Part shown: in pieces, positions 16,414 to 25,133 of the stretch | How the letters are laid out: every line of letters begins with the position of its first letter | Numbering within the stretch: the first letter of the stretch is position 1 | Position numbers and translations under genes: made by a program | Notes under the pieces: generated by a model | Seen by the model: only the letters and a program-made list of their open reading frames with translations | Told to the model about the DNA's origin: nothing | Database searches by the model: none | Origin: a phage | Direction: 5' to 3' (one strand) | Sequence record: PZ347775.1 | Length of the DNA stretch: 64,000 bases

Positions 16414-16734
16414 TTATAGCGTAATCCATTCTCGTATTGTCTGAGTTACTACACGTTCATGGGGCTCGACTAGTTCAACAGTTGGAACTGCATAATACCA
16501 GTCAGAATGGTAAGAACCTGAGCGAGATTCATTTACGGAAACATGTACATTATGTTTTGGACTAAAATAAACGCACTGCCGATATTGGCATTTGCCATCT
16601 TGTACCCAATCTTCTATTTCGACAGGTTTAAGATAATCCGAAAAATCGAAATCATAATTTTCTGAAAATGCATCATGGTCTTCGATGATTTCACTCAGAA
16701 CTGCATCAACATCTAATTTATTTTCAATAGTCAT
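16414..16734 (-). CDS. hypothetical protein
   Basis: 106 aa ORF. Confidence 0.45.
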   Translation of the reverse strand: MTIENKLDVDAVLSEIIEDHDAFSENYDFDFSDYLKPVEIEDWVQDGKCQYRQCVYFSPKHNVHVSVNESRSGSYHSDWYYAVPTVELVEPHERVVTQTIREWITL

Positions 16735-17394: not shown

Positions 17395-17637
17395 TTATTC
17401 CTTAATTCCTAGTACTTGTTTAAAAGTCTCGTCGTAATCAAGACTTTGACCTGTTTGTTCTTTATGTTTGTATATAATATCACTTACTTCTGATAGCATA
17501 TTTTTATATGAACGAGTTAAAGCAGATTTAAGCACGCTGTATCTATCAGGAAATTTACCATGTTCATTATAATACGCTATTGCTAATTCACGGACTGCCT
17601 TTTCAGCAATCTCCATATATTCTTTACGCTTTGTCAT
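17395..17637 (-). CDS. hypothetical small protein (ORF track 17395..17772; likely starts MTKRKEYME)
   Basis: Internal ATG resolves the overlap with the upstream ORF. Confidence 0.4.
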
Positions 17638-17638
17638 T

Positions 17639-18028
17639 TTAATCCAAAATATTATTAGGCATTGGTTGAACACTCGCAAGTTCTTTAAAGAACTCAGTAG
17701 AGTCAGGTAATTTAACCATTTCCGGAGCATGCTTGCTAAATTTGTGTTTACAATGACGGCATTTATATTCAAGTTCCGGTTTACGCCAGTTAATCAATTG
17801 AACCTGTTCAGTACCGCATTCAGGACAATTAGGAACGTTTTTAGAAGCCCTTTCGCGACGTTCAACCATAGCCATAATAGCATCCCAGGCTGGAGGTTTA
17901 AAATCTAAATCGTCACAACCATGAATCTTTCCACGCATTTCTAAATCGTCTTCTTCACCAGCCATAATAATTTTAATTAGACTGGAATTACTTGAAGCTG
18001 CAATATCTTCTAATAGACGCTTTTTCAT
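17639..18028 (-). CDS. hypothetical protein with putative zinc ribbon (CPEC...CRHC)
   Basis: 129 aa; two CxxC pairs ~20 aa apart. Confidence 0.5.
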
Positions 18029-18954
18029 TTCAGTACCTCAATAGCATTACGTAAACCATTTGCTTTTGCATTAAGAGCTTTTAACAATTTAGTGTGTTCG
18101 GCAATTTGGGCTTCAACTTCAATCAAACGAGCATTGAGATATTCGCGTTCTTCGCTCAAGCTATCAACCTTTTCTACTTTAGGTTCTTTTACAACTGGCT
18201 TATATGTATTAGGGTTCTTCAGTTTAATTAGAATACGTGAACTGTATAACATTGAACCATTATTTTCGATTTCGTCATACATTTCTACTACGTCCATGAT
18301 TTTTAACATCATGCGGAGTTTATAAGATAACGAACGAATAGTTTTGTTGTGCTTATTAATTTCTCTAGCTGTCATGGTGCCGAGATTACGTGAGTAATAA
18401 TAAGGAACCTGGATATTAATTAATACTGATGAACCACCTGGCTTGTGTGTTACTTCATCAGCAATAACCCAGTCCTTAACATGAACTGTATTTGTACGGT
18501 CATCGCCCGCGGTAAATAGTTTACGAGCATGCTTAAAAAGCATATTCACTTGGTCATTGAAATGACAAGCAAATTTATCAGCAAATTTAGTTTCAGGAAT
18601 GGTAGATAACCAATCAGCCAAATGGGTCTTTTTAACATCGTTAACAATAGTAAATTCAACCAAATCAGTTATAGATGTCTCAGATTTAATAAAGCTCGGC
18701 TTCATAAAGTTTTTAATGTTATCGCGAGCTACAGTAGAAGATAACATACGAGAACGTTTAAACCATTCAAGCAAATTGCCTAACGAATAAGAATAAGCGT
18801 TTTGAGTATCTTTACAGATATGATTTTCCTGGCCAACATATTGAAGGAAATCACGAAGAATATTATTAATTACTGCTCTGTGTCCGATCTGATAATTACG
18901 GTGTTTAGTAATAAGACTGTCAAAATAATCAATATAATGTTTACGAGTTTTCAT
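18025..18954 (-). CDS. hypothetical protein, paralog family A member 1 (C-terminal coiled coil)
   Basis: 309 aa; shares basic/Leu-rich central motif and C-terminal heptad tail with the next three genes. Confidence 0.6.
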   Translation of the reverse strand: MKTRKHYIDYFDSLITKHRNYQIGHRAVINNILRDFLQYVGQENHICKDTQNAYSYSLGNLLEWFKRSRMLSSTVARDNIKNFMKPSFIKSETSITDLVEFTIVNDVKKTHLADWLSTIPETKFADKFACHFNDQVNMLFKHARKLFTAGDDRTNTVHVKDWVIADEVTHKPGGSSVLINIQVPYYYSRNLGTMTAREINKHNKTIRSLSYKLRMMLKIMDVVEMYDEIENNGSMLYSSRILIKLKNPNTYKPVVKEPKVEKVDSLSEEREYLNARLIEVEAQIAEHTKLLKALNAKANGLRNAIEVLK

Positions 18955-19006
18955 GTTCTTCTCACTTGGTTAATGATTTATACTCCGAGCCATCCTTGGC
19001 TTTAAA

Positions 19007-20059
19007 TTACTTAATTAACTGTAAAGCTTGTTCAAGACGATTCAGGCGATTAACAGATTCTTCCCAAATACTTTTAGCCTGCTCATATTCTTTCTGCGCT
19101 TTATTAGAAATTTCTAGAACTTCTTTATAAGCTTTTTCTAGTGCAATAACTTCTGGACGAATTTCTACCGGTTCAGGCGAATCGTCAAGATTATCCATTA
19201 GTTCCTCAAGGGTAGTTTCTTCTTTAGGAGTATTCACAATTTCTTCACATTTTTGTTGGTAAATTTCTTTATCAGTCGGTAAATAAGCACATTTCACTTC
19301 ACGAAGACTAACTACAATTTTATATCCTTCCCAACCGCATATATTCTTAAAAGGATACGTATGAATATTTTCTACTGTTTCCATACAAAGTAATGCGGTT
19401 TCTAATTGACGAGTTATAGTGCTAGCAATTGAGAAAAATTTATTAATGTTCTTTTGGTTAGTTTCTGGTGTAAAAAATCCATAATTCACAAAAATAGATA
19501 CTTTATTTTTATCAAGTTCATATTCTTTTACGATAATCATATCAGAAGCCAAAGGATGAATTTGACGATAATCGCCATAACATAATTTAGAAGCTGATTT
19601 TAGAATTTGCTTTTTGAAAAGTCTGAAATTACTAATCCAACGACGAGTAAAAATATTCTCAGGGTCTTCTTTATTATTAAGATGATAAGAATTAACATCA
19701 CCGAACCAATTATATCCTACTACATCTTTGGTTCGTTTAATTTCTTTCCCAAAATTACCAAGAATATCCCGATTAACCAAATATGAAAGAAGACGAGACT
19801 CTTTAAAGGTTTTCTTGATAACATCTTTATCTACACGACTAGAAATTTTACGAATTTCATGAATAAATTTAGTAGAAGAAACAATACCTGCATCAACACT
19901 ATTGAGCCATTGATTGATAATAGAAATAACGCTATTTTGACCAAACATCGGTATAGCTTTATCATCAATAACACTATTGAATGATTTGATATATTCGTTA
20001 CGAGTCATATTAATCTCCTCAGTAGAAAGTAAGAACATTATACCACATCCTTGTGGCAA
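19007..20059 (-). CDS. hypothetical protein, paralog family A member 2
   Basis: 350 aa; RRWISNFRLFKKQILKSASKL aligns with member 3. Confidence 0.6.
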   Translation of the reverse strand: MPQGCGIMFLLSTEEINMTRNEYIKSFNSVIDDKAIPMFGQNSVISIINQWLNSVDAGIVSSTKFIHEIRKISSRVDKDVIKKTFKESRLLSYLVNRDILGNFGKEIKRTKDVVGYNWFGDVNSYHLNNKEDPENIFTRRWISNFRLFKKQILKSASKLCYGDYRQIHPLASDMIIVKEYELDKNKVSIFVNYGFFTPETNQKNINKFFSIASTITRQLETALLCMETVENIHTYPFKNICGWEGYKIVVSLREVKCAYLPTDKEIYQQKCEEIVNTPKEETTLEELMDNLDDSPEPVEIRPEVIALEKAYKEVLEISNKAQKEYEQAKSIWEESVNRLNRLEQALQLIK

Positions 20060-20065
20060 AGTAAA

Positions 20066-21094
20066 CTAGTTCAGTGCATTTAGTGCATTGTTCAGTTTAG
20101 AACGTTGCTTCGTAAGATTTTTGACTTTTTCTTGAGCTTTTTCTAGTATCTTTTCAGCTTCTAGCACTTCATTAGTTGCTTTAACGAGTTCATCATCTAC
20201 TGCCTTGATAGACTTCTCAATCGCATCGGCATGCCATTTTTCAACAGGTTTAAGACTCGGATTTTCAACAGGAAGAAAATTCACTTTATTGAATTTCCAT
20301 GCATCCTTATTACCTGAACTATACATCCAAAATTTAGGATCGTTTGATGAGTAATTGGATAAATTTAAATTTAAGTTATCTTGTACTTCTTGCTTTTTCT
20401 CTTGTGGGACTTCGTCCTTTCTCAAAAAATCGTATTTAAATGAAACGATCATATCAAGTTCATATGTTGTTGTGTCTAATTTAAATCGCTCAAAACGAGG
20501 TAAAATCTTAGACTGAACTGCAGCAACAACGTCCATATACTTAAATGCTTCTGTCAACTGCGATTTAAGGCATTCGCAAATTGAAAGAGAATTTTTTGTA
20601 TTAGGTTTAAAGCTAATTCGTGCAGTTCTGTTATTTTCTTTTAATGGTCTTACTTCCATCTGAAGAGTATAACCATCAAATTTCAGGTTCTTTAAGTTAA
20701 TATCAGAACCTTTTAATCGACTCGCAGTTGATAAAATTTGCTTTAATTGTCTACGGAACAGAGCAATAAATCTCCATTCAATACGATAATGATTTGGATT
20801 GAAAAATCCAGATGATAAATCGACCTTACTTTGACCAACGCCTTGAACAAATAAAGGATTTTTATAATCAATAGTTTTACAGAAATCGGTGAGTTGCTCA
20901 CGAGCAGTCATTTGTGTAATATAACCCGCTTTACTAAAATTACGCACCCATTCACTGCTATTCGTATACTTAAAGTGATGAATAACACGATTAACTTTAT
21001 CAGGGTCTAAATTATTTTCACACAAAAATGTCATAACATCACGAGTATAGCTGGCGTTACGAACCATATCTTCAATTTGAGAACGAGTTTTCAT
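20066..21094 (-). CDS. hypothetical protein, paralog family A member 3
   Basis: 342 aa; IEWRFIALFRRQLKQILSTASRL. Confidence 0.6.
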   Translation of the reverse strand: MKTRSQIEDMVRNASYTRDVMTFLCENNLDPDKVNRVIHHFKYTNSSEWVRNFSKAGYITQMTAREQLTDFCKTIDYKNPLFVQGVGQSKVDLSSGFFNPNHYRIEWRFIALFRRQLKQILSTASRLKGSDINLKNLKFDGYTLQMEVRPLKENNRTARISFKPNTKNSLSICECLKSQLTEAFKYMDVVAAVQSKILPRFERFKLDTTTYELDMIVSFKYDFLRKDEVPQEKKQEVQDNLNLNLSNYSSNDPKFWMYSSGNKDAWKFNKVNFLPVENPSLKPVEKWHADAIEKSIKAVDDELVKATNEVLEAEKILEKAQEKVKNLTKQRSKLNNALNALN

Positions 21095-21102
21095 GGTGTT
21101 CC

Positions 21103-22014
21103 TTAAGATTTAAGTAAATCGACAATTTTAATTAACTTTTCACGCTCAGATTTAGCTTTACTACTCAGTCCAGATAGTCTGAAAATTTCATCATCATATT
21201 GTTGAATAGAAATATTCAGCTCTTCAATCTGCTTATTAAAATAATCAATTTGTTCAGAATGTTTTTCGTTACTACGAACTGGTACAGGTTTTGTAGGCAA
21301 TGTAGTTGAACTGGATTCATCCGGGCGATAAATTAAAATACAACTTGAACCAATAGGGCATTTTGCACCAGATGAATATTCTAATGTTCCAGCTTCTTTT
21401 AAAACTTCAAAAGCTAAACAGAGATGATGTCCCATATTAACATAATCTGTAGAGTGAGCTCTGATGTAATAATCATCTCCACGAATACTAAATTTAAAGC
21501 ATTTAAGGTCTTCTGTATTATTGGTCTTAAAAATCATTTGTTTATCTAGACCTTTAGCTAATCGAGCGCCCAATGCTAATAATCGTCGTTGATTTTCCCA
21601 CAAATCCGCAATCATTTGATCGAATGATAATTTCGGCATTAGTCGACCATAAAGGTCATATCCTTTATTATAATTACGAAGAATTTCACTCGCATTAATA
21701 CGAGACAACGCTCCAATTTTATTAAGGGCTTTCATAATGCGATTAGATAAACTCATTCCAGACCCATTTGTTCGCTGTAAATGTTTTTCTAATCCAAAGC
21801 CAATATCAACTTTAAACTTATCTAAAATTTCGGCATGAACATCTCTGTCAATAACATTCAAATCCAAAGTTGGGTTAAATCTATGAAAAAATTTATCTGG
21901 CTCTCCACGACGAAATACAGTCCATTCATTCATCATTTTTTTATTAACTAAAGATTTAATTACTGCATTGACATTATTAATTGCTACTGACATATTTTCC
22001 TCACTCAATTTCAA
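21103..22014 (-). CDS. hypothetical protein, paralog family A member 4
   Basis: 303 aa; NQRRLLALGARLAKGL and C-terminal coiled coil. Confidence 0.6.
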   Translation of the reverse strand: MKLSEENMSVAINNVNAVIKSLVNKKMMNEWTVFRRGEPDKFFHRFNPTLDLNVIDRDVHAEILDKFKVDIGFGLEKHLQRTNGSGMSLSNRIMKALNKIGALSRINASEILRNYNKGYDLYGRLMPKLSFDQMIADLWENQRRLLALGARLAKGLDKQMIFKTNNTEDLKCFKFSIRGDDYYIRAHSTDYVNMGHHLCLAFEVLKEAGTLEYSSGAKCPIGSSCILIYRPDESSSTTLPTKPVPVRSNEKHSEQIDYFNKQIEELNISIQQYDDEIFRLSGLSSKAKSEREKLIKIVDLLKS

Positions 22015-22463: not shown

Positions 22464-22991
22464 TTATGCGAGTACCGTCTTTAACCGTTCTTCAAACTTC
22501 CGAAGAGTATTTTGGCGTTCAGCTCTTTGCTTTTTGTAAGTTTCAATACGCTCTGAAATGAGAGTGTATCGTTCATTTACTGATTCTTTCATAAAATCAG
22601 GAATTTCACGAGAAGCTTTAATCTCGTCAAATTTATCAATAACAGCTTGCTCTTCAGCAATTAAGTTATCATACATTAAAATATCTTTCTTGATAAACTC
22701 AATATCTTCTTGAGTTACACGAGATAACTTAGATGCTTTATCCTTTTTGTACTGTTCATTAGTATCACGAGACCAATGTAATGTACGATTTTTATTCGTA
22801 TTTTTGTAAATTTCGACAATACCAATCTCATCAATAATAACGATCCAATTCCAACGGGATTTGTAAATTTGTCCTCCATCAACAGTGATTTCACCTCCGA
22901 TTGAGATGTCGTTAAAGAACTTGCTTTGTGCTTCAGATTTAAATTTACCATCATTGTAATTTACCAAGTTGAAAATATCTTTAGCGTTCAT
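22464..22991 (-). CDS. hypothetical protein
   Basis: 175 aa ORF. Confidence 0.5.
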   Translation of the reverse strand: MNAKDIFNLVNYNDGKFKSEAQSKFFNDISIGGEITVDGGQIYKSRWNWIVIIDEIGIVEIYKNTNKNRTLHWSRDTNEQYKKDKASKLSRVTQEDIEFIKKDILMYDNLIAEEQAVIDKFDEIKASREIPDFMKESVNERYTLISERIETYKKQRAERQNTLRKFEERLKTVLA

Positions 22992-23436: not shown

Positions 23437-24156
23437 TTAGGATTCTTCTAAATGTCTTTTCTGAAAAGTTGATACCATACTACGATACGGTTCATTTGGA
23501 TACCCGTGTTTTATAGCTTCCTTTGTAAATTTTCTCCATCCATATTTAGTTTCTTTCCAAAGCTCGAATAATTCATCTTCATATTGCCATATAGTTAAAT
23601 GAGAACGCTTTGCAGCTTTAATTCCATTAATATGCTTTTCTTTTACTACAGGATTACTTAGTTTCTTTTTAATAATATTACTAACTTTTCTAACAAAAAC
23701 TGGGTCCTTATATCGTTGCGAAGTTTTTATTGAAGTGTTTAATTTAGCTTCCGGTGTGGATGTGACCTCTTTCATCTTTTTCTTCATATGCTGTATATGA
23801 TTAGGATTTTTCCATAAATTTATAGAATGCTTTTTGCATTTTATCCTAGTTTCATCTGCAACCTTTCCTCCTTCACCTCCGTATGACAGGTTAACACAGT
23901 TTTTTCCATATTTCAATTTACCTGCCATGATATATAATATTTCAGCTTGTACCATTTTATCATAATTATCAAAAACTTCTAAAACCGTTTTTGTTAATAT
24001 GTGGTCATTTGACACTTTTACACGTTCTATATAATTTCCACTACCAACATACGAATCATTGATGTTATTAGTTATATGTCGACCATAATAGTATTTCTTA
24101 ATACCTGTCTTTAAATTTAATATTTCAGTTTTATAGATAGTAAAATATTTTTTCAT
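23437..24156 (-). CDS. putative free-standing homing endonuclease, GIY-YIG/Seg-like (occupies the T4 mobD position)
   Basis: N-terminal TIYKTEILNLKTGIKKYYYGRH...SYVGSG resembles a divergent GIY-x10-YIG module; Lys-rich C-terminal half resembles the DNA-binding repeats of Seg/I-TevI-type enzymes. Confidence 0.45.
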   Translation of the reverse strand: MKKYFTIYKTEILNLKTGIKKYYYGRHITNNINDSYVGSGNYIERVKVSNDHILTKTVLEVFDNYDKMVQAEILYIMAGKLKYGKNCVNLSYGGEGGKVADETRIKCKKHSINLWKNPNHIQHMKKKMKEVTSTPEAKLNTSIKTSQRYKDPVFVRKVSNIIKKKLSNPVVKEKHINGIKAAKRSHLTIWQYEDELFELWKETKYGWRKFTKEAIKHGYPNEPYRSMVSTFQKRHLEES

Positions 24157-25133
24157 TTTAATAATACCGTTTCAGCAATTTCTTCCCAACCGTTTTTGTC
24201 GGTCATAATAAAGTCAGCAAGATAAAGAGCAGTACGCAGTGAAACATTGCGTAAACGATTAACATTAACTTTCATCCATGATAATGCTTTATAAGTTTCT
24301 TCATCAGAAAGACCGCGCTTTTGCATCATGTCAGTTGAAAGAATAACATCTTCAACCCTGACCATAATTTCTTCATTAGTGTGAACACCCAAATCCAAAT
24401 AAACTGAGCGGGACACCAATGCTTGTAAGTGTGGAGCAAGTTTAGTACCACGGTCTAATTCGCGGTCAATGTCAACGTTTGTGATAAAAACAATCGTTCC
24501 TTTAAATTCAAACTCACGGTCAATGCCTTTTTCTTCTAAGTAAGAAGATGCAGTGCTCCAGCAGACTTTACGGGTCTCTCCAGTGTCCAGAGCAGCTTTT
24601 AGAAGATTAAGAATGTCCATATCAGAGAAAACATCCACATCATCAATCAAAAGGACAGAATTCTCTTCACGATTATTCCAAAGCTGTTCATAAAGACCAA
24701 TACCAGAGATTTTACCATTAATGCTTTTATATTCAATGTATCCATTATCATTTGCTTTATTTAAAGCTTTATCTAAAGAATACGTTTTACCAATACCTGC
24801 TGCGCCAGAGATAATTAATGAACGAATATTTCCATTAATAATACCATTCGTCATCATTCCCATAACATTAAATCTTTTATTAATGCGGGTTTTCATATCT
24901 TCATATGATTCTTTAACTTCTTCAACTTTTACACCATCATATGAAATATCTGATTTGTAAACCCAAACACCGCGACGTTTACCGTCAATTTCAACAAAAA
25001 CTTTACCATCTCCTTGTGCATCTACCGGAGCATTATCTGGGAACCATTCGCCTAAGAGCTCAAAAGTTCCAGAGATTTCTTTACCGAAGTAGATACCCTT
25101 ATTGATAGTTACAGTTTTCATTTTATTCTCCAA
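24153..25133 (-). CDS. P-loop ATPase, AAA+-like
   Basis: Walker A ISGAAGIGKT, Walker B VLLIDDVD, candidate sensor-1 IVFITNVD. Confidence 0.6.
   Translation of the reverse strand: MENKMKTVTINKGIYFGKEISGTFELLGEWFPDNAPVDAQGDGKVFVEIDGKRRGVWVYKSDISYDGVKVEEVKESYEDMKTRINKRFNVMGMMTNGIINGNIRSLIISGAAGIGKTYSLDKALNKANDNGYIEYKSINGKISGIGLYEQLWNNREENSVLLIDDVDVFSDMDILNLLKAALDTGETRKVCWSTASSYLEEKGIDREFEFKGTIVFITNVDIDRELDRGTKLAPHLQALVSRSVYLDLGVHTNEEIMVRVEDVILSTDMMQKRGLSDEETYKALSWMKVNVNRLRNVSLRTALYLADFIMTDKNGWEEIAETVLLK

Follow-up and report, generated by a model that had tools for sequence, protein, structure and literature searches.

The neighbouring genes nrdC.3, nrdC.4, nrdC.5 and nrdC.6 of T4-like phages form one tandem paralogous family and are candidate anti-defence genes

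In a study of an evolved T4 clone that had lost parts of its genome, infection of ECOR17 was regained on deletion of dsr1, MG1655 was protected from this T4 deletion clone when it carried cloned dsr1, and nrdC.5 alone, supplied on a plasmid, restored plating (Srikant, Guegler & Laub, eLife 2022; PMC9391042). That paper deals with nrdC.5 only, and offers neither a mechanism nor a structure for its product, nor a family to which it would belong. Dsr1 itself is reported to have a TPR sensor domain in common with Avs7, through which the major capsid proteins of phages are recognised (2026 preprint, PMC12803255). Comparable genes of T4-like phages lie in islands, such as dmd-tifA-adfA (the “anti-TA [toxin–antitoxin] island”) and pin-49.2-nrdC.1, whose small, early and dispensable genes each act against a different host system and are unrelated to one another. 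Here, we analyzed a stretch of 64,000 nucleotides of phage DNA (sequence record PZ347775.1; hereafter “the window”), in which the open reading frames (ORFs) at 18025–22014 on the minus strand are the consecutive genes nrdC.3, nrdC.4, nrdC.5 and nrdC.6. The window nrdC.5 is the ortholog of T4 nrdC.5, and we regard it as very nearly certain that the other three are its paralogs, all four being anciently duplicated copies of one gene with what appears to be one architecture. The locus therefore resembles the islands mentioned above in its small, early and dispensable genes, but differs from them in that four neighbouring genes are paralogous, which points to diversity gained by duplication rather than by acquisition.

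The window comes from a Tequatrovirus (a T4-like phage), and the 6.5 kb around the array are 96–97% identical to many Tequatrovirus genomes. The four genes were identified from annotated relatives and from T4, and are located between nrdC/nrdC.1/nrdC.2 on one side and nrdC.7–nrdC.10 on the other. A preliminary description, made from the sequence before any database was consulted, had proposed four consecutive minus-strand genes at this position, and this was borne out, except that the start codons of nrdC.4 and nrdC.6 had probably been placed too far upstream. In the databases, the four proteins are spread over three families: PHROGs and Pfam unite only NrdC.3 and NrdC.4, and keep NrdC.5 (PF23882, phrog_2351) and NrdC.6 (PF26899, phrog_2257) separate. 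Against PF23882 (DUF7235), NrdC.5 scored 424.7 bits (E = 3e-127) and passed the gathering threshold of 30 bits, and NrdC.3, NrdC.4 and NrdC.6 all fell below it. Among 40 diverse members of the superfamily described below, 10 matched DUF7235 at E ≤ 1.

The pairwise identity among the four window proteins was 12–23%, and that of NrdC.3, NrdC.4 and NrdC.6 to NrdC.5 was 12–18%. Direct BLASTP comparison was significant for a single pair, NrdC.3 and NrdC.4 (26% identity over 227 N-terminal residues, E = 1e-7), and non-significant for the other five of the six pairs. Family alignments were built from database homologs and 23 related loci, and were compared profile against profile with hhalign, whose match probabilities are given below as percentages. 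The results showed that the NrdC.3 family matched the NrdC.4 family at 98% (E = 5e-14, 223 columns) and the NrdC.5 family at 80% (E = 1.4e-5, 230 columns, colinear), and that the NrdC.4 and NrdC.5 families matched at 50–61% (E about 1e-4, 233–235 columns). The NrdC.6 family matched each single family weakly. When the NrdC.3, NrdC.4 and NrdC.5 families were combined with bridging relatives, the match to the NrdC.6 family reached 95.7% (E = 1e-8) over 139 columns, all of them N-terminal (3–165), and it was still 87.4% (E = 3.7e-6, 98 columns) when the bridging protein P0238 was left out. In the controls, unrelated neighbour families gave at most 0.1%, 10 column-shuffled NrdC.6 alignments at most 0.2%, and the reversed NrdC.6 alignment 2.1%. 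Thus, the similarity is not limited to a C-terminal coiled coil: the N-terminal ∼250 amino acids (aa) are homologous, and the four-member tandem family proposed in the preliminary description consists of true paralogs.

The bridging protein P0238 (328 aa) is the sole family member on its contig, where it adjoins nrdC.2 and nrdC. Its globular region was matched by the hidden Markov models (HMMs) of all four families, with per-comparison p values of 1.7e-7 for NrdC.6 (near full length), 1e-8 for NrdC.5, 6e-6 for NrdC.4 and 3e-5 for NrdC.3. The conserved residues are also in register. The basic/Leu-rich stretches RRWISNFRLFKKQILKSASKL, IEWRFIALFRRQLKQILSTASRL and NQRRLLALGARLAKGL, which had been noticed as a shared central motif from the sequence, and the corresponding stretch of nrdC.3, FACHFNDQVNMLFKHARKLF, occupied the same columns in both the hhalign and the MAFFT alignments, and a second conserved block upstream of this motif (FSKAGYITQMTAREQLTDF in NrdC.5) was aligned in all four families (Table 1). 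In the MAFFT alignment of the 40 diverse members, an in-register block F-K-x-S-R-L-L-S...A-R-D-x-L-x-x-F was present in all families; the basic/Leu-rich helix ended in A-S/R-K/R-L and was followed by L-x-x-A-L-x-x-M-D-x-V, and a Pro-rich linker preceded a terminal helix closing in ...A-L-x-L-L-K. An exhaustive HMM search with the combined NrdC.3, NrdC.4 and NrdC.5 profile against 1.84 billion representative proteins yielded 18 matches, each of them a relative, or a fragment of one, from a T4-like phage; none came from bacteria or from other phages. With the same profile, no further paralog was found in the 64-kb window, in which the best ORF outside the NrdC.3, NrdC.4 and NrdC.5 families was NrdC.6.

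AlphaFold2 models were obtained for NrdC.5, from an alignment that included NrdC.4 and NrdC.3 relatives, and for NrdC.6, from its own family alignment, with predicted local distance difference test (pLDDT) values of 72.7 and 77.5, respectively. The order of secondary-structure elements agrees between the two models. Paired helices and a small beta element are followed by the paired helices that bear the motif (residues 105–115 and 117–128 in NrdC.5; 124–133 and 135–145 in NrdC.6), then by one beta hairpin, a helix and another beta hairpin, and a linker of low confidence leads to the long terminal helix. When the models were compared with BFVD by Foldseek, each had full-length matches to uncharacterised proteins of ∼300–370 aa from other Straboviridae. 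Three targets were common to both models, those of Pectobacterium phage PM2 (A0A0A0PZG4), Acinetobacter phage fHyAci03 (A0A345AUV5) and Klebsiella phage Mineola (A0A2Z4QAR2), with E-values of 1e-4 to 1e-7. The profile–profile comparisons, the single-copy bridging relative, the matching element order of the models and their common structural neighbours together place the four genes in one family. It could be argued instead that they are not paralogs and that their resemblance is compositional, as between AT-rich phage genes with Lys/Glu/Leu-rich tails, an argument to which the five non-significant BLASTP pairs and the three separate families in Pfam and PHROGs lend themselves. We find this hardly credible, because the profile comparisons are significant in the N-terminal region outside the coil and are backed by negative controls, because P0238 bridges all four families, and because the two models agree in secondary-structure order and in structural neighbours.

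The layout of the family, as modelled for NrdC.5 and NrdC.6, is a helical N-domain with the basic/Leu-rich helix, a small alpha/beta sandwich, a disordered linker and a long C-terminal helix. The sandwich is the most variable globular part, and the linker (residues 231–283 of NrdC.5) is the most variable stretch of NrdC.5 among Tequatrovirus orthologs. The terminal helix covers residues 286–341 (56 residues) in the NrdC.5 model and residues 243–272 and 278–295 in the NrdC.6 model. A crude heptad score of our own making peaked over the C-terminal ∼50 residues in each of the four (z = 1.8–3.7), so that the heptad-repeat tail of the preliminary description was recovered in both the models and the score, at modest z values. 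The tail is modelled as a long amphipathic helix, which probably drives oligomerisation. No catalytic family was matched by any of the four proteins in Pfam, NCBIfam, PADLOC or the PDB sequences, and the only significant matches were to their own DUF families, in line with the earlier remark that no catalytic motif was evident. No enzyme fold was detected, and the four proteins most likely work by binding host immune proteins, without enzymatic activity of their own.

Several weak matches were considered and set aside. The match of NrdC.4 to BrxC in PADLOC (E = 0.0018) falls in the tail and, like those to SEC10/PgrA (NCBIfam), PHL, DUF3905 and TEX10 (PDB), is below threshold and was judged to reflect coiled coil or composition. 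An integrase/XerD N-terminal SAM-like domain (the core-binding domain of tyrosine recombinases) was matched by residues 30–86 of NrdC.3 only, below threshold (E = 0.1 in Pfam, 0.005 in NCBIfam), and recurred in one of 40 family members; it was rejected as a chance match. Taken at face value, this match would fit the possibility that the proteins do not act on host immune proteins but target nucleic acid or the phage’s own trigger, for example by masking DNA or the capsid protein. The basic character of the conserved helix and the phage origin of the Dsr1 trigger, the capsid protein (PMC12803255), would fit as well. We nevertheless consider this possibility very improbable. Beyond the isolated, sub-threshold nature of the SAM-like match, no helix-turn-helix or other DNA-binding family was matched, and expression early in infection, before capsid synthesis, fits the pre-emptive binding of a host sensor better than it would fit masking of a protein that is made late and in great abundance.

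We compared the copy number of the family in related phages, and found that it varies from one to four. Its members occur in T4-like phages only, in which the synteny nrdC/nrdC.2 – family – nrdC.7–nrdC.10 is held, as seen in the gene maps of the 23 loci, T4, Bas37, Klebsiella phage KP13MC5-5 and metagenomic contigs. Tequatrovirus has four copies, in the order C6-C5-C4-C3. Three copies are present in other coliphage genera (loci L013–L021), as C6, a C5-type gene of 24–28% identity and C4, and in a further lineage (L005 and L006), as a C6-type gene (34%), a C5-type gene (24%) and C3 (78%). A single copy is found in the Klebsiella Jiaodavirus KP13MC5-5 (L032, 6974–7948) and in two metagenomic contigs (L024, 799–1785; L026, 1817–2764), and these loci may resemble the state before duplication. 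The single-copy members are 315–328 aa long, and adjoin, or sit a few genes downstream of, a conserved gene of ∼250–260 aa that the Tequatrovirus array lacks. In Acinetobacter phage Acj61, E5E4A1 (330 aa) and E5E4A2 (304 aa), which have consecutive accessions, both matched the NrdC.6 model in BFVD, suggesting that this T4-like phage has a tandem pair that arose independently, the adjacency being read from the accession numbers. The genes themselves and the function of NrdC.5 were already known. In the literature that we searched, we found no earlier union of the three database families in a single superfamily of defined architecture, nor any description of its expansion from one to three to four copies.

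The array has also been rearranged within the group. Protein P0119 is a fusion of NrdC.5 (148–276) to NrdC.3 (136–309) with nrdC.4 deleted, and phage ACG-C40 (NC_019399, 47512–47727) retains no more of NrdC.3 than its last 72 residues. In L003 (5916–6948) and L012 (9950–10982), nrdC.4 is broken up into two ORFs (193 and 158 aa). In the T4 reference (NC_000866; L031, 6067–6894), NrdC.6 has 275 aa and is frameshifted after residue 259, so that the C-terminal helix is replaced; this could be a mutation of the laboratory strain or a sequencing error. These observations bear on the question of whether the four proteins, rather than being independent inhibitors, join through their C-terminal helices in one obligate hetero-oligomeric machine. 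Similar endings of the terminal helix in all four (NAIEVLK, QALQLIK, NALNALN and KIVDLLKS) and the location of the genes together on one strand, with probable early co-expression, would suit such a machine. It is improbable, however, given that members can act alone: related phages have one or three copies, and nrdC.5 supplied alone in trans from a plasmid sufficed to restore infection by the deletion clone (PMC9391042). In addition, T4 NrdC.6 is without the tail, and the tails are no more alike than the N-domains, the significant profile signal being N-terminal.

We also analyzed the divergence of the four genes. NrdC.5-type genes are 24–28% identical between genera, versus 67–85% for the flanking NrdC.8 and NrdC.10 at the same loci. 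Between the window and T4, NrdC.4, NrdC.5 and NrdC.6 are 96–97% identical, whereas NrdC.3 is only 61% identical, and the window NrdC.3 therefore belongs to a different allele class from that of T4. Such classes are discrete: in 654 phage records, 251 NrdC.3 sequences were at 95–99% identity, 107 at 90–95% and 258 at 60–80%. Between the window and T4 alleles of NrdC.3, the ends were 77–90% identical and residues 91–272 were 40–57% identical. The ratio of nonsynonymous to synonymous substitutions (dN/dS) was calculated gene-wide and pairwise between orthologs by the Nei–Gojobori method, since it is not meaningful among paralogs of 12–23% identity. The values were 0.10–0.33 for nrdC.3, 0.15–0.45 for nrdC.4, 0.10–0.16 for nrdC.5 and 0.06–0.14 for nrdC.6, and, among the neighbours, 0.02–0.04 for nrdC, 0.00–0.02 for nrdC.8, 0.00–0.07 for nrdC.9 and 0.07–0.12 for nrdC.10. 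Purifying selection thus acts on the four genes, but less tightly than on the neighbours, clearly so for nrdC.3 and nrdC.4. Selection that is “diversifying” in the strict sense, as the earlier term might imply, was not found, the gene-wide ratios between orthologs (0.06–0.45) all being below 1. The cross-genus divergence, the NrdC.3 alleles, the raised dN/dS, the copy number of one to four, and the deletions, fusions and split gene give the evolution of the array an arms-race-like character.

The array region is early-transcribed and dispensable, and genes unrelated to the family on both sides of it are reported to counter other host defences. The T6 homolog of gp49.2 inhibits OLD (PMC13096335), nrdC.1 inhibits Septu (bioRxiv 10.1101/2025.11.20.689424), and bas37_0203, which we located in phage Bas37 (KarlGJung, MZ501089) as the ortholog of nrdC.8, inhibits Druantia III (2025 preprint). 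With unrelated neighbours acting against OLD, Septu and Druantia III, the stretch from pin to nrdC.8 looks like an anti-defence island. NrdC.8 was itself considered as a short fifth member of the family, on account of a C-terminal helix and a 175-aa match in BFVD, and was rejected because hhalign gave at most 1.1% to all four families.

The window NrdC.5 is 96.2% identical to that of T4, and its anti-Dsr1 function can be inferred by orthology. As one paralog disarms Dsr1, nrdC.3, nrdC.4 and nrdC.6 are good counter-defence candidates. The account towards which we lean on balance is that the four genes encode paralogous, non-enzymatic, early anti-defence binders with a constant scaffold and a variable region that sets the target. 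In this account, the proteins would be made early in infection, and each would bind a different host immune sensor or effector and neutralise it stoichiometrically. NrdC.5 would neutralise the NAD-depleting sirtuin protein Dsr1, probably by occupying it ahead of its trigger, the capsid protein, which is made late, and NrdC.3, NrdC.4 and NrdC.6 would have anti-defence roles of their own. The conserved N-domain and the terminal helix would form the constant, probably oligomeric, scaffold, and the variable central region would set the target; duplication and divergence of the array would then widen the range of host defences that the phage can survive. A working model for NrdC.5 and Dsr1 may be offered, by analogy, by DSAD1 of an SPbeta-like phage, which is described as a non-enzymatic protein that binds the defence-associated sirtuin DSR2 and blocks its activation by a late structural protein. 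DSAD1, however, comes from another phage group and targets DSR2, not Dsr1; no sequence or fold relationship between it and the NrdC.5 family was detected, and the family had no match in the PDB.

Several points weigh against this account. In the literature searched, experiments address NrdC.5 only, and we found no function for nrdC.3, nrdC.4 or nrdC.6. The inhibition of Dsr1 by NrdC.5 could be indirect, for example through masking of the trigger, and no biochemical data on direct inhibition of the Dsr1 NADase by NrdC.5 were found in that literature. The two structural models, of NrdC.5 and NrdC.6 only, are of medium confidence (pLDDT 73–78), and the heptad support is statistically modest (z = 1.8 for NrdC.4). 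The absence of the tail from T4 NrdC.6 means either that the tail is dispensable or that this copy is decaying. Finally, gene-wide positive selection was not seen between orthologs of any of the four genes, with dN/dS below 1 throughout. The earlier suggestion of an anti-defence specificity family thus stands for NrdC.5, given its activity against Dsr1 (PMC9391042), and agrees with the position of the array among anti-defence genes, but found no counterpart for nrdC.3, nrdC.4 and nrdC.6 in the published work that we searched.

The same gap leads to the most substantial alternative, which we judge unlikely but deserving of serious attention: that only NrdC.5 is a counter-defence protein, and that the other three have, by divergence, taken on unrelated roles in host takeover or housekeeping, or persist as redundant copies that are drifting towards loss. 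Identities of 12–23% between the paralogs leave ample room for functional change, a function is known for NrdC.5 alone, nrdC.3 or nrdC.4 has been lost in whole genera, and the split nrdC.4, the deletion fusions and the frameshifted T4 NrdC.6 are signs of decay or dispensability. On the other hand, all four genes are intact across hundreds of Tequatrovirus genomes and evolve at dN/dS of 0.06–0.45, the architecture appears fully conserved in the alignments and the two models, and the island neighbours, although unrelated, are also anti-defence genes. Moreover, variation in presence and absence is typical of accessory counter-defence genes.

The view of the four as early anti-defence binders can be taken a step further, to a scheme that we put forward as a long shot. 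The array may be a modular inhibitor cassette, in which the constant scaffold of N-domain and oligomerising tail displays a fast-changing central domain, and each paralog or allele is fitted to one clade of the capsid-sensing TPR receptors common to Dsr1, Avs7 and other effectors. If so, the expansion from one to three to four copies in coliphages and the NrdC.3 allele classes would mirror the receptor diversity of Enterobacteriaceae, and the family would be the phage-side counterpart of a bacterial family of pattern-recognition receptors. Quite apart from this scheme, T4 is the best-studied lytic phage, yet its nrdC.3, nrdC.4 and nrdC.6 have had no assigned function, and the present analysis provides three specific candidates in the most tractable phage system. 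It tells the constant parts of the family (N-domain and tail) from the variable ones (central domain and linker), and offers what may be an example of anti-defence diversity that arises by tandem duplication inside a phage and not by the gain of unrelated genes. It also flags a widespread mis-annotation: many public GenBank records label nrdC.3–nrdC.6 “thioredoxin.” This label appears to have been carried over from the locus name nrdC.x, and a thioredoxin or glutaredoxin identity was rejected, as there was no thioredoxin signal in Pfam, NCBIfam or the fold search.

The features of the locus are summarized in Table 1. For nrdC.4, the start is most likely the ATG at 20008 (333 aa), and not the TTG at 20059 that would give 350 aa. 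This choice is based on three features of the sequence. An early-promoter-like site, predicted purely from a consensus scan (10 of 12 consensus positions matched), overlaps the ATG upstream; a GAGGAG Shine-Dalgarno sequence precedes the ATG at 20008; and the resulting N-terminus, MTRNEYI, conforms to an M(K)TRxEYI-like pattern seen in three of the proteins (MKTRKHYI in NrdC.3 and MKTRSQI in NrdC.5). For nrdC.6, annotated relatives start at the ATG at 21993 (296 aa), versus 303 aa from the TTG at 22014.

Table 1. Positions in the window of the nrdC.3–nrdC.6 array, its conserved elements and neighbouring genes
Feature	Position	Strand	Length (aa)	Details
Gene 49.2 homolog	16414..16734	-	106	94% identity to T4 gp49.2
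nrdC.1	17395..17637	-	80	98.8% identity to T4 NrdC.1
nrdC.2	17639-18028	-	129	Zinc-ribbon protein
nrdC.3	18025..18954	-	309	phrog_1435 (E = 2e-115); PF26897 Phage_T4_Y04OP; annotated NrdC.3 in relatives
NrdC.3 tail	18028-18165	-		Heptad score
NrdC.3 motif stretch	18514-18573	-		hhalign and MAFFT
NrdC.3 second conserved block	18706-18762	-		Aligned in all four families
nrdC.4	19007..20008	-	333	From ATG 20008 (most likely start); phrog_1435; PF26897
NrdC.4 tail	19010-19156	-		Heptad score
NrdC.4 motif stretch	19583-19645	-		hhalign and MAFFT
NrdC.4 second conserved block	19751-19807	-		Aligned in all four families
Early-promoter-like site (predicted)	20065-20037	-		GTTTACT-N17-TATAAT, with TG; between nrdC.5 and nrdC.4
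nrdC.5	20066..21094	-	342	DUF7235 (PF23882); ortholog of T4 NrdC.5
NrdC.5 long C-terminal helix, coiled-coil-like tail (aa 288-342)	20069..20233	-		AlphaFold2 and heptad score
NrdC.5 disordered variable linker (aa 231-283)	20246..20404	-		pLDDT < 50
NrdC.5 basic/Leu-rich motif helix (aa 105-127)	20714..20782	-		IEWRFIALFRRQLKQILSTASRL; hhalign and MAFFT
NrdC.5 second conserved block (aa 53-71)	20882..20938	-		FSKAGYITQMTAREQLTDF; upstream of motif helix; aligned in all four families
nrdC.6	21103..21993	-	296	From ATG 21993; PF26899; phrog_2257; most divergent member
NrdC.6 tail	21106-21267	-		Heptad score
NrdC.6 motif helix	21547-21615	-		hhalign and MAFFT
NrdC.6 second conserved block	21670-21726	-		Aligned in all four families
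nrdC.8	22464..22991	-	175	99.4% identity to bas37_0203; not a family member
Homing-endonuclease ORF	23437-24156	-	239	phrog_314 (E = 2e-30); no Pfam match
nrdC.10	24153-25133	-	326	Walker A motif

Three further genes of the region are of note. The zinc-ribbon protein encoded by nrdC.2 is 129 aa long in the window versus 104 aa in T4. With a variable C-terminus and identities of 63–98% among close relatives, this protein is also unusually polymorphic; the 3′ end of the gene overlaps a 125-aa ORF at 17395–17772. The homing-endonuclease ORF lies between nrdC.9 and nrdC.10, at a position where T4 has a 95-nt gap, and among the fetched loci it was present in L008 and L011 only. The product of nrdC.10 has, in addition to its Walker A motif, weak matches to AAA and nSTAND3 P-loop NTPases (E about 1e-4), and is 78% identical across genera, that is, far more conserved than the paralog array.

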